In this document: in pieces, positions 2,841 to 34,136 of the stretch
How positions within the stretch are numbered: position 1 is the first letter of the stretch
How the letters are laid out: every line of letters starts with the position of its first letter
Assembly: GCA_016219925.1 (NCBI GenBank)
Contig: JACRJU010000012.1
Coordinates: 6,723-70,722 of the forward strand
Reading direction: 5' to 3'
Origin: Candidatus Uhrbacteria bacterium
Lineage (GTDB): Bacteria > Patescibacteriota > Patescibacteriia > UBA9934 > GWF2-40-263
Length of the DNA stretch: 64,000 nucleotides
The notes under the pieces: model-generated
The model's input: the letters and a program-made list of their open reading frames with translations, nothing else
What the model was told of the DNA's origin: nothing
Database searches by the model: none
Translations under genes and position numbers: made by a program

Positions 2841-3458
2841 TTGATAAAAAGTATTGAGGAAGCGAGAAGAGCTGGTCATATCAGCAACGAGTCGGCCAAT
2901 CTGGCTTCGGTAGCGCTTGGGCTCAAGGGGGATGAAGCGCTGTTTGCCAATCGGATTGTTTCGCGCGGTTCGGATCCGGCTTCCCTTGAGCTTGCGCGTT
3001 TTGGAAGTATCAGTGAGCCGGTCATGCGCGCGCATCAGCTCGGTCCTGGGTCGCTCAAAGAAGACGAGCGCGAGCATTGGCTCGTGCTTTCATCTGTGTC
3101 TATGGATGAAAATGCGGCGGCGGATTTGCCGCCTACCGCGAAGTTTAAACAATTTCACGATGCCCTGAAGTGGCTTGAAACCGCGACAGACACAGAAAAA
3201 AGGGCCGCGGCAGATAAAGAAAAGGGTGCCATTTTGGCCTTGCCGTTTGAGCAAAACGAGGTGGGCGGGGTTTCCATGCGTGTTTACGAATCTGATCGCG
3301 GTTTTGCAAGTGCGTATTGGTCCGGGCAGGAGGTTGCGGCTGTCAGAGAGGGGGATCTCACCTTTGTCGGATCACAAAGTCGTCCGTTAGCGGAGTTAGG
3401 CATTACGGTTGATAAGCAATTGTCGCCAACGTTTGGGATCATTTTTCCTAAAGGTTAA
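2841..3458 (+). CDS. hypothetical protein (TTG start per ORF track), preceded in frame by a 22-codon mini-ORF ending in TAA
   Basis: 205-aa ORF; 3' end overlaps the convergent gene 3455..5275 by 4 nt. Confidence 0.4.
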   Translation: MIKSIEEARRAGHISNESANLASVALGLKGDEALFANRIVSRGSDPASLELARFGSISEPVMRAHQLGPGSLKEDEREHWLVLSSVSMDENAAADLPPTAKFKQFHDALKWLETATDTEKRAAADKEKGAILALPFEQNEVGGVSMRVYESDRGFASAYWSGQEVAAVREGDLTFVGSQSRPLAELGITVDKQLSPTFGIIFPKG

Positions 3459-5275
3459 GGCTTTACCGCCCCCTTACCTTGGGCGAATTCATCTTGCGCA
3501 AGCTCCGTGGTTACCAGAGGCACTGTTGCATTAAGCTCCGCTTTTGTCGAAAGATCCAAGGCATGGAAAAGCGTTTGATTTGCAAGCTTCACGAACTTTC
3601 CAACGTCTCCTTTTTTGGGCGTGATGGAAACATTAAACCATGCTTGCGCCGCACGAATGTCGCGTGGAAGCTTTGAGACTTCCCAGCGCACCTGCCGAGT
3701 TGTCGGGTTGTAGGATAATACCCCAATATCTTTTCCAGAAGATTCTTTCCACGTGACATCTTGGGGCAAGGTCGTTGTGACATCGATATTTCCCAGATCG
3801 TGGAGCGCGTTGGATAGATCAAACAGCATACGATAACTTGTGGTTGATCCGACTTTTGGCGGCAAGTCGCCGCCGCCGACAGGCGTTCCATCGTCGGCGA
3901 AGTAGCGGGCTTGCACTGACAACGAAGCGTCTGAATTCATGGACAAGTGGACAGGCGTTGCATCAATCGTATGGGTGCCTGAAAGCGTTCCGATTTTTCC
4001 AACCGCCATGGAGAGCGCGGCATCCATCGCGTCGGCACCTCCCACAATCAGGGGCAGAGTGAAATCAATCACTCCTTCCACGCCCGGATCAAGCCTCGCT
4101 AATTCTTTGTGTTTGGTTTTGTCCCAATGCAGGGTTCCGTCAGAACGCGAAGCGTCGGAGAGATCCGCATGGGCCCAGTCCACAGGAAGTTTTCCTTGCG
4201 ACGACAGTTTAAGAGTGAATTGAACATCTTCCACAGGGTCGGTGCCCGGGTTTTTGAAATCAATGGATCCGCGCAGAGTTTTTCCTGCAGACACATTTTG
4301 ATCTTTATCCGATCCATCCAAAATTAAATGGAAGCTCACCGCACCCCCAAGGACGTCGGTTTGGACGTTTGCACTGGCCTGTTCGTTAAACGTTTCTTCG
4401 TCCATAAAACTGACTTTGGTCTGCATGGGCAGTTCCCCGTTTGCGGTTGACGTGAACGCTCCTTTAATCACAATGTCAGTGATTTTTCCGGGTTCAAGCG
4501 AGACGATGTCCCAAGAAGGGTCATCGGGCTTGATAGGAGGGACAGAAGAATCAATCACGAAGTCCGCAGGGAATACGGGCACGACACGCAAATTGAAAAC
4601 CGGATCTTTTCCTGTTTGTTCTAGATTAAGGGTGTATTCAACCGGATCTCCCGCGAGGGCTTTTTCTGGGCCTGTCATGGTGAGATGAACGCTAGACTCT
4701 TTGAGATCAACACTTTGGCTTTCGATCGTTTGGAATTCCGAGTTGAAGTTTGCCGGCTTGTAGCTGAATAAGGCTTGGATGCGTTGGGTGCTTGGAACAG
4801 GCGAAAGGAAGATGCCTTTGACGTTGATGGCGCCGTCCGAACGTGCGGTTAGGGCTCCGAGCGACCATTGAAGTTCAGCGGCAGGTTCTGGGATCGCACT
4901 CGTAAGATGGAAACTGTTTGGCAGGTTTAACTTGAGGTTCAGTGAAGCGATTGGGACGTCGCCGGTGTTTTCATACCGGATTGTAAACACCGTTTCCTCA
5001 CCGGCGCGCACAGGCTCACTAAGTTCAATGGAAGCCTTAAGTGATTCTCCGTTTTCAAAAAGGCCTCGGGTGAACAAGAAAAATCCTCCCCAAGCCAGAA
5101 GCGAGAGCACAAACAAGATTCCGATGGTTTTGATCAAAAACGCGGTCAGAGGTGACCGTTTGCGCTGGGAAAGTCTGGTGAAGTCCGGGAGTTTGCCATC
5201 ACGGCCGGAATAAATCGCTCGGAGTTCTTGTTTGATTTGTCGAGAAGATCGGCGTTTTTTTCGGCGGGGGATCAT
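3455..5275 (-). CDS. membrane-anchored extracellular repeat protein with DUF11/CARDB-like beta-sandwich repeats
   Basis: 606 aa; Lys/Arg-rich cytoplasmic N-terminus, one TM (IGILFVLSLLAWGGFFLF), then at least 4 repeats of a 'TGxxPxxNLxLxxxLPxxF' pattern (TIRYENTGDVPIASLNLKLNLPNSF; EYTLNLEQTGKDPVFNLRVVPVFPADF; ...). The start codon overlaps the stop of the upstream gene (ATGA). Confidence 0.6.
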   Translation of the reverse strand: MIPRRKKRRSSRQIKQELRAIYSGRDGKLPDFTRLSQRKRSPLTAFLIKTIGILFVLSLLAWGGFFLFTRGLFENGESLKASIELSEPVRAGEETVFTIRYENTGDVPIASLNLKLNLPNSFHLTSAIPEPAAELQWSLGALTARSDGAINVKGIFLSPVPSTQRIQALFSYKPANFNSEFQTIESQSVDLKESSVHLTMTGPEKALAGDPVEYTLNLEQTGKDPVFNLRVVPVFPADFVIDSSVPPIKPDDPSWDIVSLEPGKITDIVIKGAFTSTANGELPMQTKVSFMDEETFNEQASANVQTDVLGGAVSFHLILDGSDKDQNVSAGKTLRGSIDFKNPGTDPVEDVQFTLKLSSQGKLPVDWAHADLSDASRSDGTLHWDKTKHKELARLDPGVEGVIDFTLPLIVGGADAMDAALSMAVGKIGTLSGTHTIDATPVHLSMNSDASLSVQARYFADDGTPVGGGDLPPKVGSTTSYRMLFDLSNALHDLGNIDVTTTLPQDVTWKESSGKDIGVLSYNPTTRQVRWEVSKLPRDIRAAQAWFNVSITPKKGDVGKFVKLANQTLFHALDLSTKAELNATVPLVTTELAQDEFAQGKGAVKP

Positions 5276-7947
5276 AGAGGAGGTTCGATCAGCATGGCGA
5301 AAAATTCATCGGTGGTGTTTTGGAGCGTGGCCCGGGTGTCTCCGGTTGAGCTCCAGATATTTTTGAGTGTTTCTGGGAGCGATACGGAAACCGTTGTCGT
5401 TCGATCAAGAATGCCAGATTGTTTTTGGACGAGCAATGAGTACGGTTTGGCCTGCCCGACACGCATGAGTGAACGCAGTCGTTCTCGGAGGCGTCCATCC
5501 GCATCAAAGATTTTGAAAGGAAGACGATAGATGAAGGTTGCTGTCGTCGTCGCTCCCGGAGGTGTTTGAATCCAGTTGCCAAAAACGGTTTTGCCTTGTT
5601 CTTCATAAATATCCGTTCCGGTTTTTTCATCTCGGCTTTTGGTCGCTTGCGCAAATTGCAGATCCGCATCCATCATCCAGTCAGACTCGGGTGTTTCAAA
5701 TAAAGAACCGTCGGGAATACTAAACCCGCTTGAAGAGATCAGCTCGCTTCCTTTGGGAACATAGACGCGCAGATAATCCACATTGTTGACGCCGGTGAAC
5801 ACGAGGCCGGGGATGCCATGATGCGTTCGTTTGAGGGTGACCGTATCGATGACCGTGCCATCCGTCGCGATCTGAACCTGGACGTCCACATGTTCTTCGA
5901 TCACCGCATCTGTTTTACCGCCTCCCAAATTAGTATCGACCACCATCACATAATCACCTGAAGTCGAAGCTATGGCTCCGCTCCAACCGCGCTCCAGCGC
6001 CGCGCGTTGTAACGTATCGTTACTGAAATAAATTTGAATATCTTTTTGCTGAAGCCCTTTGGAAAATTGGTCGATCGCCCCCAAAAATATTTCCGGGTCA
6101 CCTTGTTCGGTGCGTTCAATGAGTTTTGTCGCGAGATCCCCGATGAATTGTTTGGGTTTATTTTCGGTTCGATCGTATTCGAGCTCGACGATTTTTTGCG
6201 CTTCGAACAAAAAGTTTTCCTGATCGATCGTACGGCCGTAGTCGCTCATCTCCACGGGGCCGAGCAGTCCAATGAGATCAGCCACGGCGGTGGCGTTGAT
6301 TGCAATAACCCCGTCTACGCTTGGACCGCCAGCATCGGTATAGAATTCAATCATCTGGCGCGCGCTGGTAGGGAAGTCTGGAAACCAGTTGGCATCTTGA
6401 AATTCCCAGTTGGCTTTCAGCAGTTGCAAAGGTTCAGGAGCCGCGCGCAAGTGGCGCAATTGCCCTTGCAGATCATAGGTTCCTCCGCCGGGGACATTCA
6501 GCTCTTCGATTTGACCGTTCGAAACTTTTATTTCCGCGTAGCTTCCCATGAATCCACCGGTTGCACGCATCTCTGCGTTATTTTGGAAGATAAGCAAATA
6601 TCGCTTCGTTTGATCTCCTCCCAAAATGGTAATAGCCAGATCACTCAATTCATCAAAATTCGCAAGGGTTTTTGAAAGAGGAATGAGGCGATTTTTGAGC
6701 TCCATGAAGGTCTCTTGTTGATCCGTTGGAATCACAGAAGGATCAACCGTATCGATCGCTTCGACGGCTTGTGTGAGATGTGGCGTGATGGTGCGCAGAT
6801 AAGATTGCAAAATGCGAATGCGCGAGACAGGGGTGGGGGACGGCTCATGCGCAAGGGCATCCATCGCTTCGGCAACGCGGCCACCGGCGATGCTTAAATG
6901 TTCTCCGGCCTTAAGGAGGGCTTTGCCTGTGGAAAGGTTTTTTTGTGCGGCAGGAATAACCGAGAGCAGAAGGGAGGTGGTGGCGCCTAAGTCTTGGATG
7001 CCTTGCTGGGCTTTGGCGAACCGATCACTTGCAAGCGAAAAGGCTTGTCCGGCGTCCGTCGCTTGCTGACCAGCCGTTTTGCTTGCGCCTGTTTTAAGAT
7101 ATGCGAATGCTTCTTCAGAGGCGCTTTGCACATCTGTTTTTGCTTGGCGCAGAGTAGAGACCAGGTTCATGGCGTGCAGAGGTAGGACGAAAATAAACGA
7201 GATGAGCACGAACGCACCGATGGGTCGAAGCAAAGTCGCGTTTTGGAAAAACGCAAATACGGACGGTCGCGTTGGAGCTGGAGTGAAGGTTTCTTGCGTG
7301 AGTTCAACCAGCTCGCTTTCTTCTTCCTCTTCTTCGCTGTGATCCTCTTGGGGCAAATCAAAGTACGCAAAAATATCCTCTGGCGTTTGTTTGGGAAAGA
7401 ATGATTCGATGGAAATACGTGTAAGATCCGGGAACGAATGGAACGAAGCAAAGGAAATGGCCTGGGTGTGGCGCGGCGTTGAATGCAAAATGAAACGTTC
7501 GGCTTTGCCCCTGCGAGTCTCTTCGATAAGTTGAGGAAGAACGTCGCTATGGTTAAGGACGAGGGCGTTTTTTTCGACTGGCCGAAGCGGATTTTCACGT
7601 AAGAGCGAGCCGTCTAGGAGATTGAGTCGAATGCGCGTGCGATCTTCTAAGATTTCCTCCGGCGACGGAAGTTCTTGTTTGAGGTTGAGGACAAAAGGAG
7701 AAAGCGGTTGGGCGTTTAGACGCACACGCACCGGTCCGGAATGATCAGACGATCCATAAGTGCGCAACATTTCTGGCACGGCGATATCGTGTTCGCCCAT
7801 GTCTCGTGCCGCTTGTCGGCGTTTGAGCGTACGAGATAAGGCGGCATCCTCCAGTTTTTTTGTCACCGATGCCAACACCACCGACTTTTTTTTTGTCGGT
7901 TTTTTCTTTTGGATTTTTGAAGGGGTGAGTTTTTTACGTGCGGTCAC
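5272..7947 (-). CDS. large membrane-anchored DUF4012-like protein with an N-terminal Lys-rich/poly-Glu extension
   Basis: 891 aa; N-terminal KKKPTKKK and EEEEEESE stretches, one TM (IGAFVLISFIFVLPL), then a conserved region (KRYLLIFQNNAEMRATGGFMGSYAEIKV...) that I recognise from memory as DUF4012; overlaps the next GT4 gene by 14 nt. Confidence 0.55.
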   Translation of the reverse strand: MTARKKLTPSKIQKKKPTKKKSVVLASVTKKLEDAALSRTLKRRQAARDMGEHDIAVPEMLRTYGSSDHSGPVRVRLNAQPLSPFVLNLKQELPSPEEILEDRTRIRLNLLDGSLLRENPLRPVEKNALVLNHSDVLPQLIEETRRGKAERFILHSTPRHTQAISFASFHSFPDLTRISIESFFPKQTPEDIFAYFDLPQEDHSEEEEEESELVELTQETFTPAPTRPSVFAFFQNATLLRPIGAFVLISFIFVLPLHAMNLVSTLRQAKTDVQSASEEAFAYLKTGASKTAGQQATDAGQAFSLASDRFAKAQQGIQDLGATTSLLLSVIPAAQKNLSTGKALLKAGEHLSIAGGRVAEAMDALAHEPSPTPVSRIRILQSYLRTITPHLTQAVEAIDTVDPSVIPTDQQETFMELKNRLIPLSKTLANFDELSDLAITILGGDQTKRYLLIFQNNAEMRATGGFMGSYAEIKVSNGQIEELNVPGGGTYDLQGQLRHLRAAPEPLQLLKANWEFQDANWFPDFPTSARQMIEFYTDAGGPSVDGVIAINATAVADLIGLLGPVEMSDYGRTIDQENFLFEAQKIVELEYDRTENKPKQFIGDLATKLIERTEQGDPEIFLGAIDQFSKGLQQKDIQIYFSNDTLQRAALERGWSGAIASTSGDYVMVVDTNLGGGKTDAVIEEHVDVQVQIATDGTVIDTVTLKRTHHGIPGLVFTGVNNVDYLRVYVPKGSELISSSGFSIPDGSLFETPESDWMMDADLQFAQATKSRDEKTGTDIYEEQGKTVFGNWIQTPPGATTTATFIYRLPFKIFDADGRLRERLRSLMRVGQAKPYSLLVQKQSGILDRTTTVSVSLPETLKNIWSSTGDTRATLQNTTDEFFAMLIEPPL

Positions 7948-9010
7948 AAGAGGTGTAGACCTGAACGGTTTGGCGGGCCATGGCCGTCCAGGAATATCGT
8001 TTGATGCGTTCGAAGCCTTTTTGGACGAGGGTTTGTTGTTTTTGAGGATCGTTGAGGAGTTGTTCTATCGTCAGAGCCAGTGCAGAGGGATCGTGTACGG
8101 GGAAGAAGAGAGCGCTGTCGCCCAGAATTTCTTTCAAAGCGGGGATGGCCGAGGCAATCACCGGAACACCCGCGGCCATGGCTTCAAGCGCCGGCAAGCC
8201 GAATCCTTCGATGCGCGAGGGGAAGAGGTAAGCTTTGGCGTGATGATACAAACCGCTTAAATCTTCGTCGTTTGGGCTGAAGATAAAGTGGATGTGTGAT
8301 TGGGCCAAAGATTGTTGGGCGCGTTTTTGGAGGGATCGAGAGAACACATCATCCCTTCCAGCAAAGACGAGATGGATCTCGGGCTGACGAACATGGAGCT
8401 GATCGAATGCGCGCAGAAGGACGTCAAGGTTTTTGTGCGGATAGGCATTGCCAACACACAGAAGAAAAGGGTCTGGAACAAGCGGAGCGGATGAGGCGAC
8501 GGGTGGTAAAGGAGAGACCCCTTCGTAGATCACCACGATTTTTTTTTCAGAAACGTTTGGGAAGTGTGTGAGGATACTTCGCTTGGTCGCTTCGGAAACC
8601 GTAATGATTTTTTTTGATGCGGAGACGCTGTGAGCGAGCACGCGCTTAAACCCGGCGTATTTGAGCGCGTAGACGATGGGGTGTCGGGTTGTTGCCCGCG
8701 CGCTTTTGGGTTCCTCAAGCAAGATCAGATCGTGGATGGTGACGACAAATGGCGTTTTGAGAAGGATCGGAACGTTCCAGTGTGGGAAGTGGATCAGATC
8801 GAGGTGCTCTCGGTCGATGATTGCGGGCAAGAGGATCTGTTCTTTGAGCGTGTACCAAGGGATATCAGCCGCTTTTTCCTTTCCAAATAAAACATAGCGG
8901 TTCACACTGTCGACATTGGGCAATTCACAAATCAACTGCTCCACATACCGACCCAGACCGCCACCCCCCACCGTTGGACCACTCATGCGAGCATCAATGC
9001 CGATGTTCAT
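7934..9010 (-). CDS. glycosyltransferase family 4 (GT-B, retaining)
   Basis: 358 aa; C-terminal EGFGLPALEAMAAGVPVIAS motif typical of GT4. Confidence 0.8.
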   Translation of the reverse strand: MNIGIDARMSGPTVGGGGLGRYVEQLICELPNVDSVNRYVLFGKEKAADIPWYTLKEQILLPAIIDREHLDLIHFPHWNVPILLKTPFVVTIHDLILLEEPKSARATTRHPIVYALKYAGFKRVLAHSVSASKKIITVSEATKRSILTHFPNVSEKKIVVIYEGVSPLPPVASSAPLVPDPFLLCVGNAYPHKNLDVLLRAFDQLHVRQPEIHLVFAGRDDVFSRSLQKRAQQSLAQSHIHFIFSPNDEDLSGLYHHAKAYLFPSRIEGFGLPALEAMAAGVPVIASAIPALKEILGDSALFFPVHDPSALALTIEQLLNDPQKQQTLVQKGFERIKRYSWTAMARQTVQVYTSCDRT

Positions 9011-9083
9011 GGAGAAGAGAAGTAAGAAGCTTCCTTATTATACCAAAAAATCCCGAGTTTGTGCCCAGGATGTACACAGGGTT

Positions 9084-10232
9084 TCAGATAATTTTTTCAA
9101 AGAGATTTCGCGTTTGAAGAGCGCTCTTTTCCCAAGAATAGTCTTGGGATTTTTGGAGACCTTTTTGGATCATTTGTTGGCGAAGCGGGGCCGACTGCAC
9201 CAACTCACGGATGGCTTCTGTCAAATCTACGCTGTTGTAGGGATCAATAAGGATCGCCGCGCCTCCCGTAAGCTCTGGAAGGGATGACACCCGGCTGGTG
9301 ATAACCGGCAGGCCGCTCGCCATCGCTTCCAAAATCGGAAGGCCAAAGCCTTCATACAAAGACGGCCATAACAAAACCTGCGCGCTTCGGTATAAGGCCG
9401 GGCGATCTTGCCCGGGCACATAGCCAATCGGGTGAACCCAAGAGCGATAATCCCGCCGCCAGAGCAGGTGTCTGACGTGAGGGGAATTCCATCCCCATTT
9501 GCCACACAAGACGAGATGCAGATCATCTGCGGTCGTTTGTCGGTAGGCGTGTACGGCCTCGATCAGAGCTGGAACATTTTTGCGCGGCTCGATCGTTCCC
9601 ACAAACAACGCGAAGCGTCGGGGAAGTCTGAGCCGTGAACGCACCCCGTGGTCGCGCGCTTCCATCTTTGGAGCGAATGTCGAATCTTTTCCATGGGGGA
9701 TGACCTGCACACGATCAGTCTCAACCTGAAAGGTCTCAACAAGGTCTTGTTTGGTTGAAGCGGAAGGAGTGATGAGATGCGCGCAGGAAGCGATCAGTTT
9801 TTGTGGACGTACCGCCGCGTGCCACAGGCGCATCTTGCGTGAATAGAGTTCCGGAAAAAATTTCCAGGACAAATCATGGACCGTGAGAACTGAAGGGATA
9901 TCCGATGGGAGAGAAACAATGTTGAGGTTGGGGAGAAATAACAAATCAATCGGTTCTGGGACTCGCCAATTTAAAGTGGGGTGTCCAAGTAACAGCGTCC
10001 GCAGATTAAGGAGTTTGTTTGGCGTGTTGACATGAACAAATCTGATGCGGTCATCAGGAGCGTGCTCTAGCATTTCTTGCGGAGGTTTCGGATGGAGACG
10101 CCCGCTTGAAAGAAAAGTATAAGCGTTTGTTTGGTCCATGCGCAAAAGCGCGCGCAACAACTGCGTGGTGTATTCTCCGATGCCACTCGGCTCTGGACTG
10201 GAAAGGTGTCTGATATCAACAAGGATGCGCAT
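9084..10232 (-). CDS. glycosyltransferase family 4
   Basis: 382 aa; EGFGLPILEAMASGLPVITS motif. Confidence 0.8.
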   Translation of the reverse strand: MRILVDIRHLSSPEPSGIGEYTTQLLRALLRMDQTNAYTFLSSGRLHPKPPQEMLEHAPDDRIRFVHVNTPNKLLNLRTLLLGHPTLNWRVPEPIDLLFLPNLNIVSLPSDIPSVLTVHDLSWKFFPELYSRKMRLWHAAVRPQKLIASCAHLITPSASTKQDLVETFQVETDRVQVIPHGKDSTFAPKMEARDHGVRSRLRLPRRFALFVGTIEPRKNVPALIEAVHAYRQTTADDLHLVLCGKWGWNSPHVRHLLWRRDYRSWVHPIGYVPGQDRPALYRSAQVLLWPSLYEGFGLPILEAMASGLPVITSRVSSLPELTGGAAILIDPYNSVDLTEAIRELVQSAPLRQQMIQKGLQKSQDYSWEKSALQTRNLFEKII

Positions 10233-11301
10233 GTTTGACGAGTTCCTTCATCTCCTCCTTGAACCGGTTTTTTCCAAATCGCCCAGCTTGGGTTTTAATG
10301 CGATGCGGGTCGTAGCGCCGTTCATCAAATCGGATGAGGTGATCGGCGAGTTCTTCCCAGGTTTGGGTTTCGATGAATTCTCCGCTGATATCTTCGACGA
10401 CCGTTTCGGTCGCTCCGCCTTTTCGATATGCGATGACCGGTCGGCCTGAAGCCATGGATTCAACGGGGGTGATCCCAAAATCTTCTTCTTGTGGATGAAT
10501 GAAGGCGAGTGCATCGGCGTACAGATCATGAAGCGCCTCGTCGCTCACCTTGCCGAGAAATTCAATGTTTGATTTGGCTTGTCGGCGCAGGCCCCTCTCG
10601 ACCGGTCCGGATCCAAAGATTTTGAGCGGGATTCCGGTTTTATTGCAGGCATCGATGACGAGATCAAAACGCTTATACGCCACCAATCGTCCACCGGTCA
10701 GGAACGCGGTTTTGGGACGCGGAGAAATGTGGAAGCGGTCAGTATCAACCGGCGGGAAGATGATCTGCGCGTCTTTGCGGTAATATTTTTGAATGCGCGC
10801 GCGAACCGTTTGCGAGTTTGCTACAAAATAATCGACACGGCTCGCCGCCTGCTGATCCCATTGTCTAAGTCTGCTCAAGACGGGAGGCAGAATGGCTTTG
10901 ACGAGTCTGGGGACGCGGAGCTCTTCCACGTAGCTGTGCGTATCCGTCCAGAGGTAGCGGGTAGGAGTGTGACAGTAGCAGATATGGACGGCTCCGGGTC
11001 TCGTGATGAGGCCTTTTGCAAACGCACTGGTTGAAGAGATCACCACGTCATAATCGGATAAATCATAATGCTCGGTCGCGGTGGGCATCAGCGTGATGTA
11101 CCACTGATATTTTTTGAGCGCGAGCGGGAGGCGTTGCAAAAAAGACGTGCGGATGTCGCGCGTGGCAAATTGGGGGAGTTTTTTGGGATCAAAAAACAAG
11201 GTATAGGTTGGGGCTTCTGGCCAGATCTCCTGCAGAACTTCAAGCACCTTTTCTGCGCCCCCATCCTGAACCAAGTAATCATGAACCAAAGCGATCTTCA
11301 T
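10216..11301 (-). CDS. glycosyltransferase family 4 (MKIALVHDYL...GGAE type)
   Basis: 361 aa; N-terminal MKIALVHDYLVQDGGAEKV and C-terminal EDFGITPVESMASGRPVIA motifs; overlaps the downstream GT4 by 17 nt. Confidence 0.8.
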   Translation of the reverse strand: MKIALVHDYLVQDGGAEKVLEVLQEIWPEAPTYTLFFDPKKLPQFATRDIRTSFLQRLPLALKKYQWYITLMPTATEHYDLSDYDVVISSTSAFAKGLITRPGAVHICYCHTPTRYLWTDTHSYVEELRVPRLVKAILPPVLSRLRQWDQQAASRVDYFVANSQTVRARIQKYYRKDAQIIFPPVDTDRFHISPRPKTAFLTGGRLVAYKRFDLVIDACNKTGIPLKIFGSGPVERGLRRQAKSNIEFLGKVSDEALHDLYADALAFIHPQEEDFGITPVESMASGRPVIAYRKGGATETVVEDISGEFIETQTWEELADHLIRFDERRYDPHRIKTQAGRFGKNRFKEEMKELVKHAHPC

Positions 11302-11356
11302 AACGCGAACAGGTTACAAGGATCGTCGAGTCTCATCAAGTTTTGTGCAGGCTCTT

Positions 11357-12802
11357 TTAGTAAACTCCCTTTTCTTTGCGGAAGAGGATAACTAAAGGGG
11401 TTTTAAATAAAATGTAGAAATCGAGCCACGGATTCCAATGTTCGATGTAAAAGGTGTCGAGGCGAACTTCGTCTTCAAAATCCAGATCGGCCCGTCCACT
11501 GATTTGGGCCATGCCGGTGATGCCGGGCTTAACGGTATGAACTTTACGATGCTCGGGGCGATATTTTTCGACTTCTTCTGGGAGATGCGGTCGCGGACCC
11601 ACGAGCGACATCCGTCCAGCAAAGACTAAAAAGAATTCAGGCAGTTCATCAATCGAGTAGGTGCGAATAAATCGCCCCACGCGAGTCACGCGCGGGTCGT
11701 TTTTGATTTTGACCATGGGTGTTCCTTTGCGAATGTCTTGGTTTGCGAGTTCTTTATAGCGCATGAAATGGGTGCCGGGAACCATCGAGCGAAATTTGAA
11801 ATAGCGAAAGGCTTTGCCATTTTGACCGATCCGAACGCTCGGCATATTTTTATCAATTTTGGCGAAGAACACCGGTCCGCGCGAATCAAGTTTGATGGCG
11901 ATCGCGGTCAACAGCATGATCGGACTGGTCAGCACGATCAATAGGAGCGAACCGGCAATATCAAACAGACGTTTATAAATAGCCCCCCATCCATCCAATG
12001 GCGTTTTTTGCACTTCGATAACCGGAACGCCCGCATACGTGTGATGAACAGATCGTCCAACCGCGGCGCCGAATAAATCAGCCGTGAACAGAAATCCAAG
12101 ATGTTCACTTTCGGTTAGACTGATAAGAGCCAGACGCGTCTCACCACTTGCTTCGCTATCGGCAAGGATCACCTCGTCGAGTTTATCCTCTCTGGCCATT
12201 TGGGTGAGTCGTTTACTCAACGCTTTATCAAACGAAGCAAAATGGCCGACCACGCGAAATCCGAAGCGTGCTTTTTTTTTGAAGTCTTCGACAAGTGCAT
12301 CCGCGGTTGCATTTTTTCCAATAACGACAAGACGATGGGTGCCGATGCCGAGCCGCAAAAGGGAACGCTGAAGCCCTCGCACCACAAGACGGGCTACGGA
12401 CACGAAGATCACTGAGAGACCCCATGAAGCGAGCGCGATAAAACGCGACTCAAAGAGTTCACGAGAAAAAAACAAAATACCAAACACCAAAGCCATGGAA
12501 GCAGAACACGCCAACACGACACGCGAAAGTTCAGAGGCGATCCGAGTGCGATGGGCGGCGTAAAGGCCCGAGAACGCAAACACCACAATCCAGATCAGAA
12601 CAAGAGGTGTGGCGATTTTTAAATATTGTTCGTAGGTGAGATCGAAAATGACCGGACGAATCGCGGTGAACGCTGGATGGAAGCGAAGAAAGAACGCCGC
12701 CGAGGCCGCCGCAAGCAATGAAAAAAAATCGAGCGGAACGAGCAGGAGCGTGAAGGCAAGTTCGGAGCGTTTCATAAGGTTTGTGGATCCAATAGGACTC
12801 AT
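11357..12802 (-). CDS. polyprenyl-phosphate sugar-1-phosphate transferase (WbaP/exopolysaccharide priming glycosyltransferase family)
   Basis: Multi-TM N-terminus followed by the bacterial sugar transferase domain (FKFRSM...DELPEFFLVFAGRMSLVGPRP). The ORF-track start at 12937 would run into the RNase P RNA gene, so a start at the Met of MSPIGSTNLM (about 12802) is preferred. Confidence 0.75.
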   Translation of the reverse strand: MSPIGSTNLMKRSELAFTLLLVPLDFFSLLAAASAAFFLRFHPAFTAIRPVIFDLTYEQYLKIATPLVLIWIVVFAFSGLYAAHRTRIASELSRVVLACSASMALVFGILFFSRELFESRFIALASWGLSVIFVSVARLVVRGLQRSLLRLGIGTHRLVVIGKNATADALVEDFKKKARFGFRVVGHFASFDKALSKRLTQMAREDKLDEVILADSEASGETRLALISLTESEHLGFLFTADLFGAAVGRSVHHTYAGVPVIEVQKTPLDGWGAIYKRLFDIAGSLLLIVLTSPIMLLTAIAIKLDSRGPVFFAKIDKNMPSVRIGQNGKAFRYFKFRSMVPGTHFMRYKELANQDIRKGTPMVKIKNDPRVTRVGRFIRTYSIDELPEFFLVFAGRMSLVGPRPHLPEEVEKYRPEHRKVHTVKPGITGMAQISGRADLDFEDEVRLDTFYIEHWNPWLDFYILFKTPLVILFRKEKGVY

Positions 12803-12841
12803 GGTATCAAAAAATTCCGCGTGAGCGAAATTTTTTGATGT

Positions 12842-13301
12842 CCTGGGAGAAGTCTGTAAGCCGAATTTTGTCTTCTGTGGGCGCGAGCCCAGAGGAGATG
12901 GCCATCTCTCTAGCCCGATCATTGCTGACCGGATCAAGACCGGCGAAGCCGGTCATAGCGAGCTACCAAACTTGCTCTTTCACCGAAAAGGGTTTGCCAC
13001 GCCATCGTGTCACCACGAGGCGAGATGCGTGGCACACCGGGCAGGGCCCCGTGCACGCCGCATCACTTTTCACCTTTGATCCGGCCGTGAGGCCGGACTC
13101 GTATTGTCTCTGTGGTACTTTCCCTAGGTTTTGAATCCGGGATCAGGGAATATGAATTGCTCCAATTCCGCGAGCCCTGAATCTTATGCCTGGTCGCCGT
13201 TAGCGACTTTTCGTTTCCTGATGCCTTGCGACACCAGGGGTGTTCGGACTTTCCTCTCCATCCTTTTGATGGATGCAGCGGCCATCCGACTTTCCCAGGA
13301 C
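12842..13301 (-). ncRNA. rnpB: RNase P RNA (rnpB), bacterial type
   Basis: Minus-strand read contains P4 5' strand AGGAAAGTCCGAACAC, J11/12 AAAGGTGAAAAGTG and P4 3' strand CACAGAAGACAAAATTCGGCTTACAG (compare E. coli GGAAAGUCCGGGC / AAGGGUGAAA / ACAGAACCCGGCUUA). P1 pairing CCTGGGAAAGTC...GACTTCTCCCAGG; a perfect promoter lies upstream; A/T stem hairpin plus T-run at the 3' end. Confidence 0.75.
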
Positions 13302-13986: not shown

Positions 13987-14082
13987 TCAGGGCATGAGGA
14001 TTTTGACCAATCCGGGGATGGTCGGCAGGTAGGCCAGGACGATCGTAATGATAGCCCACGTACGCATCTCGGCGTTGCTCAT
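13987..14082 (-). CDS. 31-aa hydrophobic micro-ORF (MSNAEMRTWAIITIVLAYLPTIPGLVKILMP)
   Basis: ATG...TGA, 15 nt upstream of the membrane-protein gene whose RBS (GGAGG) follows it; single predicted TM; hand-translated and not in the ORF track. Confidence 0.3.
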   Translation of the reverse strand: MSNAEMRTWAIITIVLAYLPTIPGLVKILMP

Positions 14083-14169
14083 AATAGCTTTCTTTTCTGC
14101 GAGTGAATGTGCAAGACGACGAATGAATAGCTTACGCTTTGTTGGGTGTCTGTCAAGGAAAATTTTGTG

Positions 14170-14199
14170 AAAATAAAAAGGCCGAGTCTGTGGCTCGGC
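14170..14199 (-). terminator. rho-independent terminator after deoB
   Basis: Minus strand GCCGAGccacagaCTCGGC followed by CTTTTTATTTT; the hairpin overlaps the TAG stop. Confidence 0.5.
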
Positions 14200-15428
14200 T
14201 AGGCGGCGATGTGGACGATGGCGTCGCGTTGAGTGTCTGCGCAGTTAAAGTGCTGCGCGACGAGCAGACCCACCTCCGTGAGCCCTTCGCCCGTTCCCGT
14301 CTGGAGGGGAAACTGACGGTTCCCCACAGTGCAAGCCAATAGTGGCACCGGCTCGCGGTTGTGGTAGCCGTAGTCGTCGCGGTGCTCCATGCCGTGATCG
14401 GCTGTGATCAGGAGCAGATCGTCCGTGGCGAGCTCCGCCTCAATCATCGGCAGGACGCGGTCGAACTCTTCGAGACAACGCAGAGCGCCCTCGATGTCGC
14501 GCGTGTGGCCGTAGAGACTGTCGGTGTCGACGCAGTTGGCGAAGATGAAGGTTCCCCGCGCAGATGTGGTGCGCGTGTGGCGGACGGCGCGCACGATGCC
14601 GTCGATTGTGAAGGGGTTGGTGTCCTTCTGCTTGGGATGCACGAAGCGCAGGTCGAGCTTCGGATCCAGCAGGCTCGGATCCGCGAGATGATACTCGAGA
14701 TCGTAGTCGGTGTTGACCAGATCGCTGGGCTTACCGACAGAGATCACATGGATGCCGGCGTGGCGCAGGACGTCCACGAGAGTGGGTCCCGGCAGGGCGA
14801 GCACGGCGTCGTGGCGGTTGGCCGTGCGGATGTATTCGCCTTCAGGCGTCTGCACGAAGGCGCGGGCGATCGCCCGTGTGATCGGGATCCCCATCTCGAT
14901 GGCGACCTGCAGGGCGAGATCCGCGATTCGGTGTTGCTCGTTGATCTGGATCACAGCTTCGTCCATCGCGAACTGGATGAGGGGATCACACTTGCTTGCG
15001 TAGACGATTGGCCGTCCGGTGCGAGCGTGCTCCGCGGCGTTGGTTTCGATTACCTCGACCCCACCGCCCATTTGGTTGAACAGAGTCTCGCGCCCGGTGC
15101 GACGCTCGAGCTCCGCGATGTAGCGAGTGTCGAATCCGTTGGGGAAGAGCTTGTAGGTCCGACCATCCACGATGCCGCACATCTCGCGATGTCCGATGAC
15201 GGAATCGGGGGAGGCCGAGGCTTGGTCGAGGCGTACGGCGTGTGCACCGGGTTGCGGGTCGGGGCCAAGAACGAGGCGCGAATGGACGTTCGGATTCAGC
15301 AGAGTGCGCAGGCCCAGCCGGGTCAGGTTGGGGAGAGCGGTTGGCTTCTTGGAGCGATCGAGCAAGTACTCAAGGGTCGTGACCCCCAAAGCATCCAGGA
15401 CGATGAGTACGGCGATGCGCGCGGACAT
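14199..15428 (-). CDS. deoB: phosphopentomutase
   Basis: 409 aa; alkaline-phosphatase-superfamily motifs including LITADHGM; full-length similarity to DeoB as recalled; GAAAAGGAG RBS; about 65% GC. Confidence 0.85.
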   Translation of the reverse strand: MSARIAVLIVLDALGVTTLEYLLDRSKKPTALPNLTRLGLRTLLNPNVHSRLVLGPDPQPGAHAVRLDQASASPDSVIGHREMCGIVDGRTYKLFPNGFDTRYIAELERRTGRETLFNQMGGGVEVIETNAAEHARTGRPIVYASKCDPLIQFAMDEAVIQINEQHRIADLALQVAIEMGIPITRAIARAFVQTPEGEYIRTANRHDAVLALPGPTLVDVLRHAGIHVISVGKPSDLVNTDYDLEYHLADPSLLDPKLDLRFVHPKQKDTNPFTIDGIVRAVRHTRTTSARGTFIFANCVDTDSLYGHTRDIEGALRCLEEFDRVLPMIEAELATDDLLLITADHGMEHRDDYGYHNREPVPLLACTVGNRQFPLQTGTGEGLTEVGLLVAQHFNCADTQRDAIVHIAA

Positions 15429-15480
15429 GGGACTCCTTTTCTAAGAGCAGAGAACTCTTAGTGACACGGAGCTTACGGGA

Positions 15481-15516
15481 AAAGAAAAATCCCGTCCACT
15501 CTTGCGAGCAGACGGG
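15481..15516 (-). terminator. rho-independent terminator after the aldehyde dehydrogenase gene
   Basis: Minus strand CCCGTCtgctcgcaagagtgGACGGG followed by ATTTTTCTTTT. Confidence 0.45.
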
Positions 15517-15533
15517 TTGGAAGAAGAGGAGCA

Positions 15534-17909
15534 TCAGGCACCGAAGGGCACCCAGATGGCCTTGGGGTGGGTCGCCTCCGCCAGGGCCCGGGCGGAGAGG
15601 ATCGATGGGTCCAGCCAGTTGAGTCGACGGCCGTCTGACACCCACGTGCGCTTGAGGTTGCCGATTGAGACTTCCTCGATGCGCCGACTGGTGTCGGGAT
15701 CGTATCCGAAGTACCAGAACGATCCGACCTCATCGTAATTGCCTGCGAGCATGACCGCGGCCTCGTCGGGCGCTTCGGGCGTGAGGATGTTGACCACGCC
15801 GCCGGGCAGGTCCGAACTCTGCGCGATCGGCACAAGGTCGAGCGCACTGATGGGCCTGGTGCCCGCGAGCATCACGACCGTGTTGCCCTGGGCGATGGCC
15901 TGTGCCATGGGAGCGACCATTCCGAGCAGAGGAAGCTCGTCGGTCGCCCGCACGCCGATCACCCCGATCGGTTCGCTCAAGGTCGTGACCAGCATCGGGC
16001 CGCACACTCGGCTGACCGTGCCGGCGTTGCGATCCGCATAGGCTGCGTTCCAGAACAGCGCCTCGACCGAGGCGTCGAACTCCTGGCGCGCCTGCTCGAA
16101 CGAGATGCCCGTCTGGGCGCGCAGGCGCTCGATGATGTCGAGCCGCTGGTCGGTGAGGTTCTCCGCGAAGAACCGCAGGATCTGCGCCCGGTTGTGGCCG
16201 GTCTTGCCGCGCCAGCCCAGGAAGGCCTTGGCGGCCGCCTCGACCGCACTGCGCAGATCCTTGCGGTTGACGTGTCCCACGTTGCCGAGGAACACCCCGC
16301 CGGGGCCGTTGATGCGGTAGCTGCGGTCTCCGTCGGGGCGCTTGAGCGCGCCGCCGATGAGGTTCCGTCGGGTGCGGTGAAGCGTGAGCCCCACCACGGG
16401 CTCGGGCACACGATCCTCCGGCTCGGGCACACGCGGTTCCACCGGGGGCTGGTCGACCTCTGTGAGGTACGCGAGCATGCCCCGGTCTCCGCCTTCGGAA
16501 CCCCAGCCACTCTCGCGACGGCCTCCGAACTCGACGGCGGCATCGAACTGGTTGGTGCAGTTGATCCACACCGTGCCAGCTTCGATCCGGGAGGCGATGT
16601 CGAAGGCCACGTCCATGGTCTGCGACCACACGCTGGCGGCCAGGCCGTAGCGCGTGTTGTTGGCCAGCTCCACAGCCTCACCGACCTCGCGGAACGTCAT
16701 GATGACGAGCACGGGGCCGAAGATCTCCTCGCGCGCGATCGTGTGCGCGGGCGAGACGTTGGTGAACAGAGTCGGGGGGATGAACAGGCCGCACTGGCAG
16801 GACTCGAGCAGGCACGAATCGGGCTGCCACTTGGTGGCCCCTTCCTGCTCGCCCAGAGCGATCAGGCCCGTGACCTTGTCGAACTGCGCGCGCGAGTTCA
16901 TCGCGCCGATGTCCACGGTTTTGTCGAGCGGATGACCCACTCGCAGACGCGACATCCGCCGCTTGAGCTTCGCGAGGAAGCGTTCGACGACGCTCTCCTG
17001 GACGATCGCGCGCGATCCGGCGCAACACACCTCCCCCTTGTTGAAGAAGATGGCGTCGATGATGCCCTCGACTGCAGCGTCCAGATCGGCATCCTCGCAC
17101 ACGATGAAGGGCGACTTGCCGCCGGCCTCCAGCGTGAGAGCTTTGCCCGATCCGGCCGTGGCCGTTCGGATCTTGCAGGCAACCGCGGTTGAGCCGGTGA
17201 AGGCCACTTTGGCGATGCCCGGGTGGCGCACGAGTGCGTCTCCGGTCGAGCCATCACCGTTGACGATGTTGACGACGCCCTTTGGCAAGCCGATCTCCAT
17301 CAGGATCTCGGCGAACCGCATGGCGGTCAGCGGCGTGGAGTCCGCCGTCTTGATGACGACGGTGTTGCCGGTCGCGAGCGCGACCGCGACCTTCCAGGCG
17401 AGCATCAGGAACGGGAAGTTCCAGGGGATCACCTGGCCGACGACTCCGCGCGGCTTGTGGTTGGGATGGTCCACGCCGAGGGTCTGGGCCCTTCCGGCGT
17501 GGTGTTCGAAGTGTCGGACGACCAGCGGGACGTCCGCGTCGCGGGCTTCCCGGATGGCCTTGCCGTTGTCGAGAGTCTCGAGCACGGCGAAGAGCCGGGC
17601 GTTCTCACGGATCGCGCGGGCGATCGCGTAGAGGTGCAGGGCGCGCTCGAATCCCGAGAGTTGGCTCCAGGTCTTGAACGCCTCGCTGGCGCTCGCGACC
17701 GCGGCGTCGACATCCGCCTGGGTTCCCCGGGGGATGCTCGCCAGCCGTTCGCCCGTGGCCGGGTTGATGACCTCGATCCGATCGGTTGTCCCGGACGGGG
17801 TCTGGAACACTCCGTTGATGAAGTGATCGAAGGTGTCGTTGTGCGAAGCGAGCCAGTGCAGAGCAGACCCTGCGTCCTCGTGATCGCTCGTATAGACAGC
17901 CGTGGTCAT
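15534..17909 (-). CDS. aldehyde dehydrogenase family protein with a second, degenerate ALDH-like C-terminal domain (791 aa)
   Basis: The N-terminal ~480 aa carry canonical ALDH motifs (VIPWNFPFLM, KTADSTPLTA, EAGGKSP, GEVCCAGSR, EEIFGPV). Residues ~500-791 again resemble an ALDH NAD-binding/catalytic region but lack the catalytic Cys context. The start overlaps the deoC stop by 11 nt. Confidence 0.7.
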   Translation of the reverse strand: MTTAVYTSDHEDAGSALHWLASHNDTFDHFINGVFQTPSGTTDRIEVINPATGERLASIPRGTQADVDAAVASASEAFKTWSQLSGFERALHLYAIARAIRENARLFAVLETLDNGKAIREARDADVPLVVRHFEHHAGRAQTLGVDHPNHKPRGVVGQVIPWNFPFLMLAWKVAVALATGNTVVIKTADSTPLTAMRFAEILMEIGLPKGVVNIVNGDGSTGDALVRHPGIAKVAFTGSTAVACKIRTATAGSGKALTLEAGGKSPFIVCEDADLDAAVEGIIDAIFFNKGEVCCAGSRAIVQESVVERFLAKLKRRMSRLRVGHPLDKTVDIGAMNSRAQFDKVTGLIALGEQEGATKWQPDSCLLESCQCGLFIPPTLFTNVSPAHTIAREEIFGPVLVIMTFREVGEAVELANNTRYGLAASVWSQTMDVAFDIASRIEAGTVWINCTNQFDAAVEFGGRRESGWGSEGGDRGMLAYLTEVDQPPVEPRVPEPEDRVPEPVVGLTLHRTRRNLIGGALKRPDGDRSYRINGPGGVFLGNVGHVNRKDLRSAVEAAAKAFLGWRGKTGHNRAQILRFFAENLTDQRLDIIERLRAQTGISFEQARQEFDASVEALFWNAAYADRNAGTVSRVCGPMLVTTLSEPIGVIGVRATDELPLLGMVAPMAQAIAQGNTVVMLAGTRPISALDLVPIAQSSDLPGGVVNILTPEAPDEAAVMLAGNYDEVGSFWYFGYDPDTSRRIEEVSIGNLKRTWVSDGRRLNWLDPSILSARALAEATHPKAIWVPFGA

Positions 17910-17918
17910 GGAATCCTC

Positions 17919-18884
17919 CTAGGCGATCGCCAGGTAGTGGCCGGCCGGGTAGCGCCCGAACGCGGCGTGGTGCAGTTGGCGCTCCAGGTCTCCCAGAAGT
18001 GAGCTGGCTCCGATCCGGAACCGCTCCGGCTTCGTCCAGTCCTCTCCGAGCTGTTCGTGCATGAGCGCCATCCAGGCCTGGGCCTCCTTGGCCGTCTTGA
18101 TGCCGCCGGCGGGCTTGAAGCCCACGGGGTGGCTCGGATCGATCTCGAGGAAGCGCAAGATCTGGTCGGTCATGACCAGACCGATCGGCAAGGTAGCGTT
18201 GGTTGCTTCCTTCCCAGTCGAGGTCTTGATGACATCGGCTCCGGCCAGGATGGCCGTGGCCGAGGCTTTCGCGATCCGTTCGAGCCTGACCAGGTTGCCC
18301 GTTCCCAGGATCACCTTGAGCTTGGCGCGATCGCCACAGGCCCTGCGGAAGCCGGCGATCTGGTCGTAGAGCGCCTTCCAGTTGCTCTGAAGCGCGAGGG
18401 CGCGGCTGATGACCACGTCGATCTCGGCCGCACCGGCGTTGATCGAAGCCTCGATCTCTTGAGGCTTGAGTTCCTCAGGGCCTTGCCCGTCGGGGAAGAA
18501 CGTCGAGACCGCCGCGACCGGGACCCCGGTTTTTTCCAGACAGGCCACGGCCTCGGCGACCTGCGCGTGGTACACGCACACGGCGCCGACGGTGAACGGC
18601 TCGATCCCGAGTTTCTCGAGGATGTCCGGTCGGACCGGACGCTTGGCCTTCTGGCAAAGCCGATCGACTCGTCCGGGAGTGTCACTCCCATCCAGAGTGG
18701 TCAGGTCGATGCACTGGATGGCATCGACGTGGGCGCGCACTTGCGAACCCCTCTTGATTGGCCGGCGCGCGACGAGCGATTGCGCTCGCTGTTCGACGCC
18801 TCTTCGGTTGACGTGGATCGACTCGATCAGGCCCAAGTCGAAGGCCAAAGTCTCACGCATGACTCCTCCGTAGGAAATTCCCAA
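17919..18884 (-). CDS. deoC: deoxyribose-phosphate aldolase (long form)
   Basis: 321 aa; class I aldolase TIM-barrel motifs (AAVSTFFPDGQG, Schiff-base Lys region VIKTSTGK); GGAGG RBS; high GC. Confidence 0.8.
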   Translation of the reverse strand: MGISYGGVMRETLAFDLGLIESIHVNRRGVEQRAQSLVARRPIKRGSQVRAHVDAIQCIDLTTLDGSDTPGRVDRLCQKAKRPVRPDILEKLGIEPFTVGAVCVYHAQVAEAVACLEKTGVPVAAVSTFFPDGQGPEELKPQEIEASINAGAAEIDVVISRALALQSNWKALYDQIAGFRRACGDRAKLKVILGTGNLVRLERIAKASATAILAGADVIKTSTGKEATNATLPIGLVMTDQILRFLEIDPSHPVGFKPAGGIKTAKEAQAWMALMHEQLGEDWTKPERFRIGASSLLGDLERQLHHAAFGRYPAGHYLAIA

Positions 18885-33389: not shown

Positions 33390-33466
33390 TGGTAGGGGCG
33401 GATGGATTCGAACCATCGGCCATCGAGGTATAAGCTCGACGCTCTAACCAACTGAGCTACGCCCCT
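33390..33466 (-). tRNA. tRNA-Ile with anticodon UAU (AUA-decoding type), CCA encoded
   Basis: Minus-strand read AGGGGCGTAGCTCAGTTGGTTAGAGCG-TCGAG-CTTATAC-CTCGA-TGGCC-GATGGTTCGAATCCATC-CGCCCCTACCA; perfect 5-bp anticodon stem; loop CTTATAC gives U33 and anticodon TAT. Confidence 0.7.
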
Positions 33467-34029: not shown

Positions 34030-34106
34030 GGGCGCATAGCTCAGTTGGTTAGAGCGTCACATTGACATTGTGAAGGTCAGAGGTTCGACTCCTCTTGCGC
34101 CCACCA
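34030..34106 (+). tRNA. tRNA-Val (anticodon GAC), CCA encoded
   Basis: GGGCGCATAGCTCAGTTGGTTAGAGCG-TCACA-TTGACAT-TGTGA-AGGTC-AGAGGTTCGACTCCTCT-TGCGCCCACCA. Confidence 0.8.
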
Positions 34107-34136
34107 GTTCGCTCACAGGCAGAATGCGGAGAATCT

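Follow-up and report, generated by a model that had tools for sequence, protein, structure and literature searches.

A glycan gene cluster conserved among Uhrbacteria and their CPR relatives, with a DUF4012 protein of LCP-like predicted fold

We describe a gene cluster on a 64,000-nucleotide stretch of DNA (the window) from Candidatus Uhrbacteria, a lineage of the Candidate Phyla Radiation (CPR). Six long open reading frames (ORFs) within positions 3455-12937, all on the minus strand, encode a phosphoglycosyltransferase (PGT), three GT4 glycosyltransferases, a protein of the DUF4012 family and a 606-amino-acid (aa) membrane protein with immunoglobulin (Ig)-like domains. We propose that they form a conserved core-genome pathway for an envelope glycan in Uhrbacteria and related CPR bacteria, with DUF4012 as a terminal transferase similar to enzymes of the LytR-CpsA-Psr (LCP) kind, a model whose probability we place near the middle of the scale. 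The functional claim for DUF4012 rests on a predicted structure. The cluster itself is real and far beyond chance, because the identical gene order recurs in independent CPR genomes.

Envelope biogenesis in CPR bacteria is largely unknown, as few of these organisms have been cultured. A fold-level link to LCP enzymes would turn an "unknown envelope protein" into one with a specific, testable job for a large uncharacterised family and, if true, would name the missing attachment step of an envelope glycan across much of the uncultivated bacterial tree. A relative of LCP enzymes that is invisible to sequence comparison matters for annotation, and the enzymes themselves are under consideration as antibiotic targets (PMC7831098).

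Layout of the cluster

Gene content, gene-order conservation, topology and the LCP-like predicted fold are the parts of this study that were obtained directly. The first-pass annotation of this DNA had proposed six minus-strand genes in the order PGT, three GT4, DUF4012 and the 606-aa protein. All six ORFs were found where it had placed them, and the domain matches (Pfam and NCBIfam, with transmembrane (TM) helices from a hydropathy scan) agree with that order:

11357..12802 (ORF to 12937), minus strand: large polytopic PGT of the Bac_transf / EPS_sugtrans type (Pfam, TIGR03025)
10216..11301, minus strand: GT4a, a GT4 glycosyltransferase (Glycos_transf_1 1.3e-24, and Glyco_transf_4)
9084..10232, minus strand: GT4b, a GT4 glycosyltransferase (Glycos_transf_1 and Glyco_transf_4)
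9011..9083, minus strand: gap of 73 nucleotides (nt) at the module boundary (hairpin and T-run, promoter-like box)
7934..9010, minus strand: GT4c, a GT4 glycosyltransferase (Glycos_transf_1 2.7e-37, and Glyco_transf_4)
5272..7947, minus strand: DUF4012 protein, 891 aa (PF13196 1.9e-30)
3455..5275, minus strand: 606-aa type II membrane protein with Ig-like ectodomains (DUF11/CLIPPER and NPCBM_assoc/CARDB-like; Pfam, NCBIfam)

The PGT matches Bac_transf (1.5e-60) and CoA_binding_3 in Pfam, exceeds the TIGR03025 (EPS_sugtrans) cutoff (378.7 bits against 295.55) and has a 4+1 pattern of TM helices by hydropathy, as expected of the large Bac_transf type. It falls below both equivalogs, WcaJ (327.3, cutoff 410.75) and WbaP (283.9, cutoff 403), and is therefore placed at the subfamily level only, with no sugar specificity assigned. 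All three GT4 proteins combine a Glyco_transf_4 N-domain with a Glycos_transf_1 C-domain, and none of the three reaches an NCBIfam equivalog cutoff. What had been called DUF4012-like is a true member of PF13196, which scores 106.7 bits against a cutoff of 28 over aa 445-579.

Three start/stop overlaps reported earlier are real: 17 nt between the GT4a stop and the GT4b start (10216-10232), 14 nt between the GT4c stop and the GTG start of the DUF4012 gene (7934-7947), and ATGA between the DUF4012 stop and the start of the 606-aa gene (5272-5275). The GTG start is supported by homologue alignments that begin at residue 4-28. Translational coupling had been thought to run through the whole cluster to the envelope proteins. 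The chain is broken by gaps of 55 nt between PGT and GT4a (11302-11356) and of 73 nt between GT4b and GT4c (9011-9083). Within the latter, a weak hairpin (9071-9050; -9.7 kcal/mol, z -0.75) is followed by T6 and then by TGgTATAAT (~9046-9038), all upstream of ATG 9010. The earlier proposal would have suffered from an internal terminator or promoter that uncoupled the DUF4012 gene. None was seen between the GT4c, DUF4012 and 606-aa genes, the sole candidate being the weak one upstream of GT4c. The cluster is probably two transcription units or modules and not a single unbroken coupled chain.

Conservation among CPR genomes

The DUF4012 and 606-aa proteins of the window have 100% identical counterparts annotated in a Candidatus Uhrbacteria metagenome-assembled genome. 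A scan of species-representative genomes gave more than 590 matching stretches. The locus counts given here rest on the best 80 loci, all from the CPR (among others Uhr-, Magasanik-, Falkow- and Kerfeldbacteria), in which the six window proteins and a hidden Markov model (HMM) of the 606-aa family were used as queries. The conserved order is PGT, GT4a, GT4b, a variable slot, GT4c, DUF4012 and the DUF11 protein, at 35-59% identity (loci L001, L002 and L087, and the 80 genome loci). The gene contexts of homologues of 44-52% identity have the identical order, with a DUF11 protein of ~610 aa. Housekeeping neighbours recur as well, RNase J and a tRNA synthetase upstream, FemAB and RuvA downstream. 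In 63 of 69 loci the immediate upstream neighbour of DUF4012 is a GT4 gene, and in 63 of 76 its immediate downstream neighbour is a DUF11-type partner. With enough flanking sequence to judge, 25 of 38 loci have a PGT gene within 10 kb of DUF4012; the chance expectation we take to be a few percent in a genome of ~1 Mb. Recurrent linkage of DUF4012 to PGT and GT4 genes had been set as a check on the first-pass annotation, and it was seen in these loci and in Rhodococcus and Streptomyces, and has been published for Bifidobacterium longum (see below).

The GT4a orthologue comes after the PGT gene in related loci, and these two genes and GT4b can move as a unit. They are inverted and downstream in L017, L020, L022, L026 and L027, and in other loci 1-6 kb of unrelated, variable genes stand between GT4b and GT4c. 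Because PGT-GT4a-GT4b can be inverted, moved or separated from GT4c, we regard the cluster as two modules; the split coincides with the 73-nt gap of the window. The cargo of the slot between GT4b and GT4c is mixed. In L087 (4515-8745) it consists of three paralogues of ~410 aa with two TM helices and no Pfam match; elsewhere (L008 4632-5813, L031 5732-7540, L030 6265-8103) it is an MFS transporter, a polytopic protein of DUF4153 or GlmS. The idea that the slot is the constant home of a flippase or polymerase was rejected on account of this mixture and of the empty slot in the window.

One sub-lineage (e.g., L034, L042, L047, L064) has the PGT, three GT4s and a shorter DUF4012 and is without the DUF11 partner. 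A MurJ gene takes the place of the partner downstream in the three loci checked (L034, L042, L047). FemAB lies near the cluster in the window, and MurJ or GlmS beside it in other lineages; neighbours of this cell-wall kind agree with a product linked to the wall. A fixed six-gene order that adjoins cell-wall genes in genomes of ~1 Mb suggests an important, possibly essential, envelope component.

It should be noted that many ENA records of metagenome-assembled genomes with the cluster are titled "uncultured Gammaproteobacteria bacterium" (e.g., L003, L005, L009), one Lysobacteraceae and one Kapaibacterium. These titles are probably mislabelled, or the genomes mis-binned.

The DUF4012 protein and its predicted fold

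A full-length AlphaFold2 model (49 homologues, mean pLDDT 73.9) and hydropathy divide the DUF4012 protein as follows:

7234..7947, minus strand: aa 1-238, predicted disordered cytoplasmic region, K/R-rich and acidic (pLDDT <50 over most of aa 1-237)
7177..7233, minus strand: single TM helix, aa 239-257 (hydropathy; start of model helix 240-292)
6625..7161, minus strand: extracytoplasmic helical bundle, aa 263-441 (model, pLDDT ~75-93)
5983..6615, minus strand: alpha/beta core with LCP-like predicted fold, aa 445-655 (trimmed model)
5275..5970, minus strand: C-terminal beta-rich domain(s), aa 660-891 (model; NLGGGKTD motif at its start)

The bundle, whose helices span 240-292, 296-319, 332-366, 373-399 and 408-441 in the model, sits between the TM helix and the core, the position of an accessory domain. 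In homologue alignments the disordered region carries the short conserved motifs SPF, NLL and PEDIFAYFDLPEEE; alignments with relatives outside the closest group (~40% identity or less) mostly start at about residue 240. Conservation is strongest in the alpha/beta core and not in the helices. Residues G443, Y450, Q455, E459, R461, T/S463, G464, G465, G468, D545, G546, G563 and N578 are invariant in CPR, Rhodococcus, Streptomyces and Lachnospira. Members from CPR, Actinomycetota and Bacillota alike keep the polar residues Q455, E459, R461, T/S463, D545 and N578 unchanged, which speaks for a site of ligand binding or catalysis.

The core was also modelled separately (AlphaFold, aa 436-680, pLDDT 76.4, pTM 0.77) and compared with the PDB by Foldseek. 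The top 32 matches are all LCP structures (E 9.5e-6 to 0.09, TM-score 0.35-0.52, probability 0.66-1.00), and the matches after them are to other folds with probability <0.1. Among the LCP matches are 3pe5, Cps2A with octaprenyl pyrophosphate, TagT, TagU, TagV, LcpA of Staphylococcus aureus, LcpA of Actinomyces oris (5v8c), MsrR and BrpA. The secondary structure elements of the model follow one another as strand, loop, hairpin, helix, strand, helix and strand, an order that agrees with the LCP core. The signal is clear only once the model is trimmed to the core: the full-length model gives mostly weak matches, one LCP structure (3nxh) among them. Its other matches, to 4g2a, to N-domains of M1 peptidases and to subunits of oligosaccharyltransferase and glycosylphosphatidylinositol transamidase, have low TM-scores and were set aside as generic beta-sandwich matches of the C-terminal domain, which itself resembles 4g2a and the M1 peptidase N-domain weakly. 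A structure check had been suggested earlier with a Wzz- or polymerase-like ectodomain in mind; the core matches LCP enzymes instead, and no Wzz, Wzy or transporter fold is among the matches listed. The DUF4012 core thus has an LCP-like fold, as far as the model goes.

LCP proteins are laid out as a TM anchor, an accessory domain, the core and a C-terminal domain, and the bond that these enzymes hydrolyse is the one formed by the priming phosphotransferase (PMC7831098). DUF4012 can be compared with Cps2A, TagT/U/V, LcpA-C of S. aureus and LcpA of A. oris. Besides the predicted alpha/beta core fold, it shares the N-terminal anchor, the extracytoplasmic core, the optional accessory domain and the C-terminal domain: a K/R-rich N-terminal region is followed by the TM helix of aa 239-257 and then by the core outside the membrane. 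Its gene also lies beside a glycan pathway to be finished, the priming phosphotransferase included. It differs in that no sequence similarity is detectable, in its invariant motifs FQNxxExRxTGG and VDG with one invariant Arg, and in having an accessory domain that is long and helical and a large beta domain at the C-terminus. The Uhrbacteria version carries, in addition, the 238-aa disordered cytoplasmic tail, and CPR members come with an Ig-repeat membrane protein as their dedicated partner.

The 606-aa partner protein

Two segments of the partner could be placed exactly:

5093..5149, minus strand: TM helix, aa 43-61 (hydropathy)
4364..4669, minus strand: DUF11/CLIPPER domain, aa 203-304 (PF01345 1e-12, 48.8 bits against a cutoff of 24.6; TIGR01451 1e-9)

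Weaker Ig-like matches occur at aa 86-134 (NPCBM_assoc and a weak DUF7619). Ahead of the TM helix, aa 1-42 (5150-5275) contain a conserved cytoplasmic motif, ELRxIYxxxDGxxPDLTxL. In both envelope proteins such motifs stand in N-terminal sequence that is otherwise disordered or basic, and through them the proteins may dock onto the cytoplasmic enzymes or onto one another. The orthologues are of near-constant length (600-620 aa) and 33-68% identical, the closest above the closest DUF4012 orthologues (up to 59%), and many residues of the ectodomain are invariant in the family. On inspection, the sequence shows neither a sorting signal at the C-terminus nor any evident Ser/Thr-rich region or linker, and a profile of the family found nothing among PDB sequences.

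The constant length and high conservation make the protein look more like a dedicated partner or scaffold than like an adhesin or S-layer protein of the variable kind. With the stalks of CLIPPER (DUF11) fibrillar adhesins (PMC12617251) it shares one clear DUF11/CLIPPER domain and related Ig-like surface segments. Unlike them, it is short, fixed in length and anchored by an N-terminal TM helix; it has no long tandem-repeat stalk and is more conserved than usual adhesins. Many DUF11 domains are without isopeptide residues (PMC12617251). A 205-aa candidate ORF on the plus strand (2841-3458), with no Pfam match, is convergent with the 606-aa gene and overlaps it by 4 nt at the stop codon.

DUF4012 outside the CPR

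A search with the DUF4012 core returned 10,476 representatives (E<=1e-3, clusters at 50% identity), and a tblastn search turned up plasmid copies in Rhodococcus, Streptomyces and Lachnospira. In R. qingshengii the order is ABC exporter permease and ATPase, sugar transferase and DUF4012, with glycosyltransferase and dTDP-rhamnose genes near, a layout that resembles that of wall teichoic acid loci. The neighbours in Streptomyces are a tyrosine autokinase, an O-antigen-ligase-family protein and a GT4, and those in Rhodococcus sp. YL-1 an O-antigen-ligase-family protein and glycosyltransferases. In Lachnospira the linkage to glycan genes is weak.

In the exopolysaccharide/capsular polysaccharide cluster of B. 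longum 105-A, the DUF4012 gene BL105A_0406 lies between the priming transferase and wzz (PMC5412050). Meheust et al. found DUF4012 (fam000574) to be enriched in CPR and also in Gram-positive bacteria, and guessed an envelope role (PMC6744442). These proteins belong to the same Pfam family as that of the window, with no fold or mechanism assigned in either study (PMC5412050; PMC6744442). CPR members are longer, ~890 aa against ~575 aa in B. longum (from the 1730-bp gene) and 606-621 aa in Actinomycetota and Lachnospira, and their genes keep to a fixed order of six, a DUF11 partner included. Our literature search returned three papers that mention DUF4012, and no paper that links DUF4012 to LCP, mentions PF13196, or links LCP enzymes to CPR. 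The linkage of DUF4012 to exopolysaccharide genes has been published already, and what appears to be new is the fixed six-gene CPR cluster, its two modules, the dedicated DUF11 partner and the LCP-like fold.

Proposed pathway and its alternatives

Beyond these observations, we infer a donor, an acceptor, a catalytic activity and a role for the 606-aa protein. From what is known of the families, module 1 (PGT, GT4a and GT4b) would work at the cytoplasmic face, beginning and extending a sugar chain carried by undecaprenyl phosphate, and GT4c, the first gene product of module 2, would add another sugar. The lipid-linked glycan would then be flipped outward by a transporter encoded outside the cluster. 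DUF4012, held by one TM anchor with its core outside, would take the glycan linked to undecaprenyl pyrophosphate, cleave the bond made by the PGT and attach the glycan to an acceptor. Peptidoglycan would be the most likely acceptor; the alternative is the co-translated 606-aa Ig-repeat protein, which otherwise would be a fixed partner or scaffold. A PGT and an LCP-like enzyme make a logical pair for the start and the end of a pathway, since LCP enzymes hydrolyse the priming linkage (PMC7831098). It also speaks for the pathway that an HMM search for canonical LCP genes found none in the window or in ~1.4 Mb of related CPR loci, a search of loci and not of whole genomes.

The scheme resembles pathways of the wall teichoic acid type (TagO, cytoplasmic glycosyltransferases, exporter and LCP ligase) in its priming on undecaprenyl phosphate, its few cytoplasmic glycosyltransferases and an extracytoplasmic ligase that acts last. 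The likeness extends to the DUF4012 locus of R. qingshengii, where an ABC exporter pair lies beside the PGT. The differences are that the primer of the window is a Bac_transf-type PGT and not of the TagO/WecA type, and that the cluster has neither polyol-phosphate polymerase genes nor an exporter.

A number of results weigh against the proposed pathway. The link to LCP is by predicted structure, of moderate confidence (pLDDT 76), with a TM-score of ~0.5 and a root-mean-square deviation of 7-10 Å. Sequence methods do not recover it. The Pfam profile of the LCP family (PF03816, LytR_cpsA_psr) had no match to DUF4012 at E<=10, and hhalign of DUF4012 against LCP profiles (5 and then 110 LCP sequences against 85 and then ~230 DUF4012 cores) gave colinear alignments with P 0.03-0.3, column-shuffled controls being equally high. 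The arginine cluster of LCP enzymes is not evidently conserved, R461 being the sole invariant Arg, accompanied by the invariant acidic residues E459 and D545, and the position of the LCP "PRD" reads "PGGG" in DUF4012 by our own, unverified alignment. Linkage to a PGT is not universal, 13 of the 38 loci having none within 10 kb; a weak terminator-like site lies between the two modules; and Pfam reveals no flippase or polymerase in the cluster. A DUF4012 profile search of PDB sequences also found no LCP chain. Because sequence methods miss the relationship, we call the domain LCP-like in fold and do not file it as a member of the LCP family.

DUF4012 could glycosylate its co-translated neighbour, the 606-aa protein, as LcpA of A. 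oris does GspA (PMC6381275), an alternative that departs from the proposed pathway in the acceptor alone and that we think rather unlikely, though worth keeping in view. The two genes are tightly coupled by the ATGA overlap, the partner follows DUF4012 directly in most loci (63 of 76), the A. oris enzyme (5v8c) is among the fold matches, and protein glycosylation by LCP enzymes is documented (PMC6381275; PMC7831098). The partner is, however, absent from one CPR sub-lineage and from the DUF4012 loci of Actinomycetota and Bacillota, which makes it impossible as an acceptor for the family as a whole. Neither a sorting signal nor an obvious Ser/Thr-rich linker is seen in its sequence, and its constant length and high conservation fit a component of the machine.

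It is distinctly improbable, in our estimate, that DUF4012 regulates chain length or works as a co-polymerase, polymerase or export scaffold and not as a transferase, as the first-pass annotation had offered in part as one of its options. The long extracytoplasmic helical bundle that follows the TM helix (aa 263-441) would suit such a role, as would the place of the B. longum gene beside wzz (PMC5412050) and a cluster that has no polymerase or flippase of its own. The number of TM helices and the fold point elsewhere. Co-polymerases have two TM helices, and polymerases and flippases many; DUF4012 has one, and it has no match to the Wzz family in Pfam or among the listed folds, so that it falls outside the polysaccharide co-polymerases (Wzz/PCP). 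Conservation peaks in the alpha/beta core and not in the helices. Nor does DUF4012 replace the genes for Wzz, tyrosine kinase or O-antigen-ligase-family proteins, since it is present alongside them in the B. longum and Streptomyces clusters. With a single TM helix and an LCP-like core, the role of a terminal transferase (ligase) fits DUF4012 better, and one in polymerization or export is not favoured.

An LCP-like fold need not mean catalysis. DUF4012 might be a pseudoenzyme, a sensor of the lipid carrier or an envelope scaffold, or the two modules might be neighbours that share no pathway; we consider this improbable. The canonical arginine motifs are not recognisable, the large disordered cytoplasmic tail with its conserved short motifs suggests signalling or recruitment, the modules are invertible or separable, and terminator-like and promoter-like signals occur in the gap between them. 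Set against these are the charged and polar residues that are strictly invariant across phyla, the GT4 gene that almost always overlaps the DUF4012 gene or is set off from it by a short gap, and the PGT within 10 kb at a frequency (25 of 38) far from the few percent that we presume for chance.

On a wider view, DUF4012 might constitute a second branch of the LCP fold, one that has diverged strongly (~10,000 sequence clusters) and acts as a glycopolymer or glycan ligase in CPR and at many polysaccharide loci of Actinomycetota and Bacillota. The active-site motif would then be a different one, FQNxxExRxTGG ... VDG, and in CPR the enzyme would form a fixed pair with the Ig-repeat protein as acceptor or wall-spanning partner. 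We hold this wider view tentatively, at less than even weight.

The start of the PGT gene and rnpB

Two features lie just upstream of the PGT gene:

12840..13297, minus strand: RNase P RNA gene, rnpB (Rfam RF00010, 149.6 bits)
12805..12840, minus strand: strong 15-bp hairpin whose two arms hold an A-run and a U-run, respectively (folding energy)

The first start codon of the PGT ORF (12937) falls within the RNase P RNA gene, and a start there is impossible because rnpB occupies 12840-13297 on the same strand. The start proposed earlier, 12802, is clear of rnpB, but ATG 12775 is the likelier: homologues begin with MKRSxLxFT and are 472 aa long, and the window protein reads MKRSELAF from ATG 12775, with which the length of 472 aa agrees. 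The hairpin takes up the 38 nt between the 3' end of rnpB and ATG 12802. It folds with -18.3 kcal/mol (z -6.7), and 0 of 200 shuffled sequences fold equally well; it is probably the terminator or a processing structure of rnpB. Before rnpB is a promoter-like site (13336-13308), sigma-70-like at 11 of 12 positions and with a TG. The rnpB gene adjoins the PGT gene in all 6 related loci tested (L001, L005, L011, L015, L016, L036), in either orientation. It is a conserved neighbour that serves as context only and lies outside the pathway.

Other features of the window

A second, larger glycan cluster spans 36804-63325 and contains GT2 and GT4 enzymes and several methyltransferases. A CTP_transf_3 cytidylyltransferase adjoins a DAHP_synth_1-type synthase there, suggesting a CMP-activated keto-sugar. 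The same cluster includes a fused ABC exporter (48438-50216) and a 675-aa protein resembling Wzy_C/O-antigen ligase (61298-63325); the exporter could also serve the DUF4012 cluster. A second Bac_transf PGT is encoded at 34095-35441.

Positions 14000-18000 form an island of high GC content (0.62-0.67 against a background of ~0.50), with genes for a metalloenzyme-superfamily protein and a 791-aa aldehyde dehydrogenase, and a DeoC-type aldolase just beyond. The island lies between rnpB and the genes for a tRNA synthetase and RNase J, two genes that in L001 are directly beside rnpB/PGT, and it looks like a horizontally acquired insert. A tRNA-Ile with the anticodon TAT (UAU), uncommon in bacteria, is present at 33390-33466 on the minus strand. 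Finally, a 427-aa protein with a T4SS_pilin domain (25231-26514, plus strand) adjoins a DsbA-like thioredoxin (24484-25224), a pair that recalls the pilin-oxidoreductase association described for CPR bacteria.

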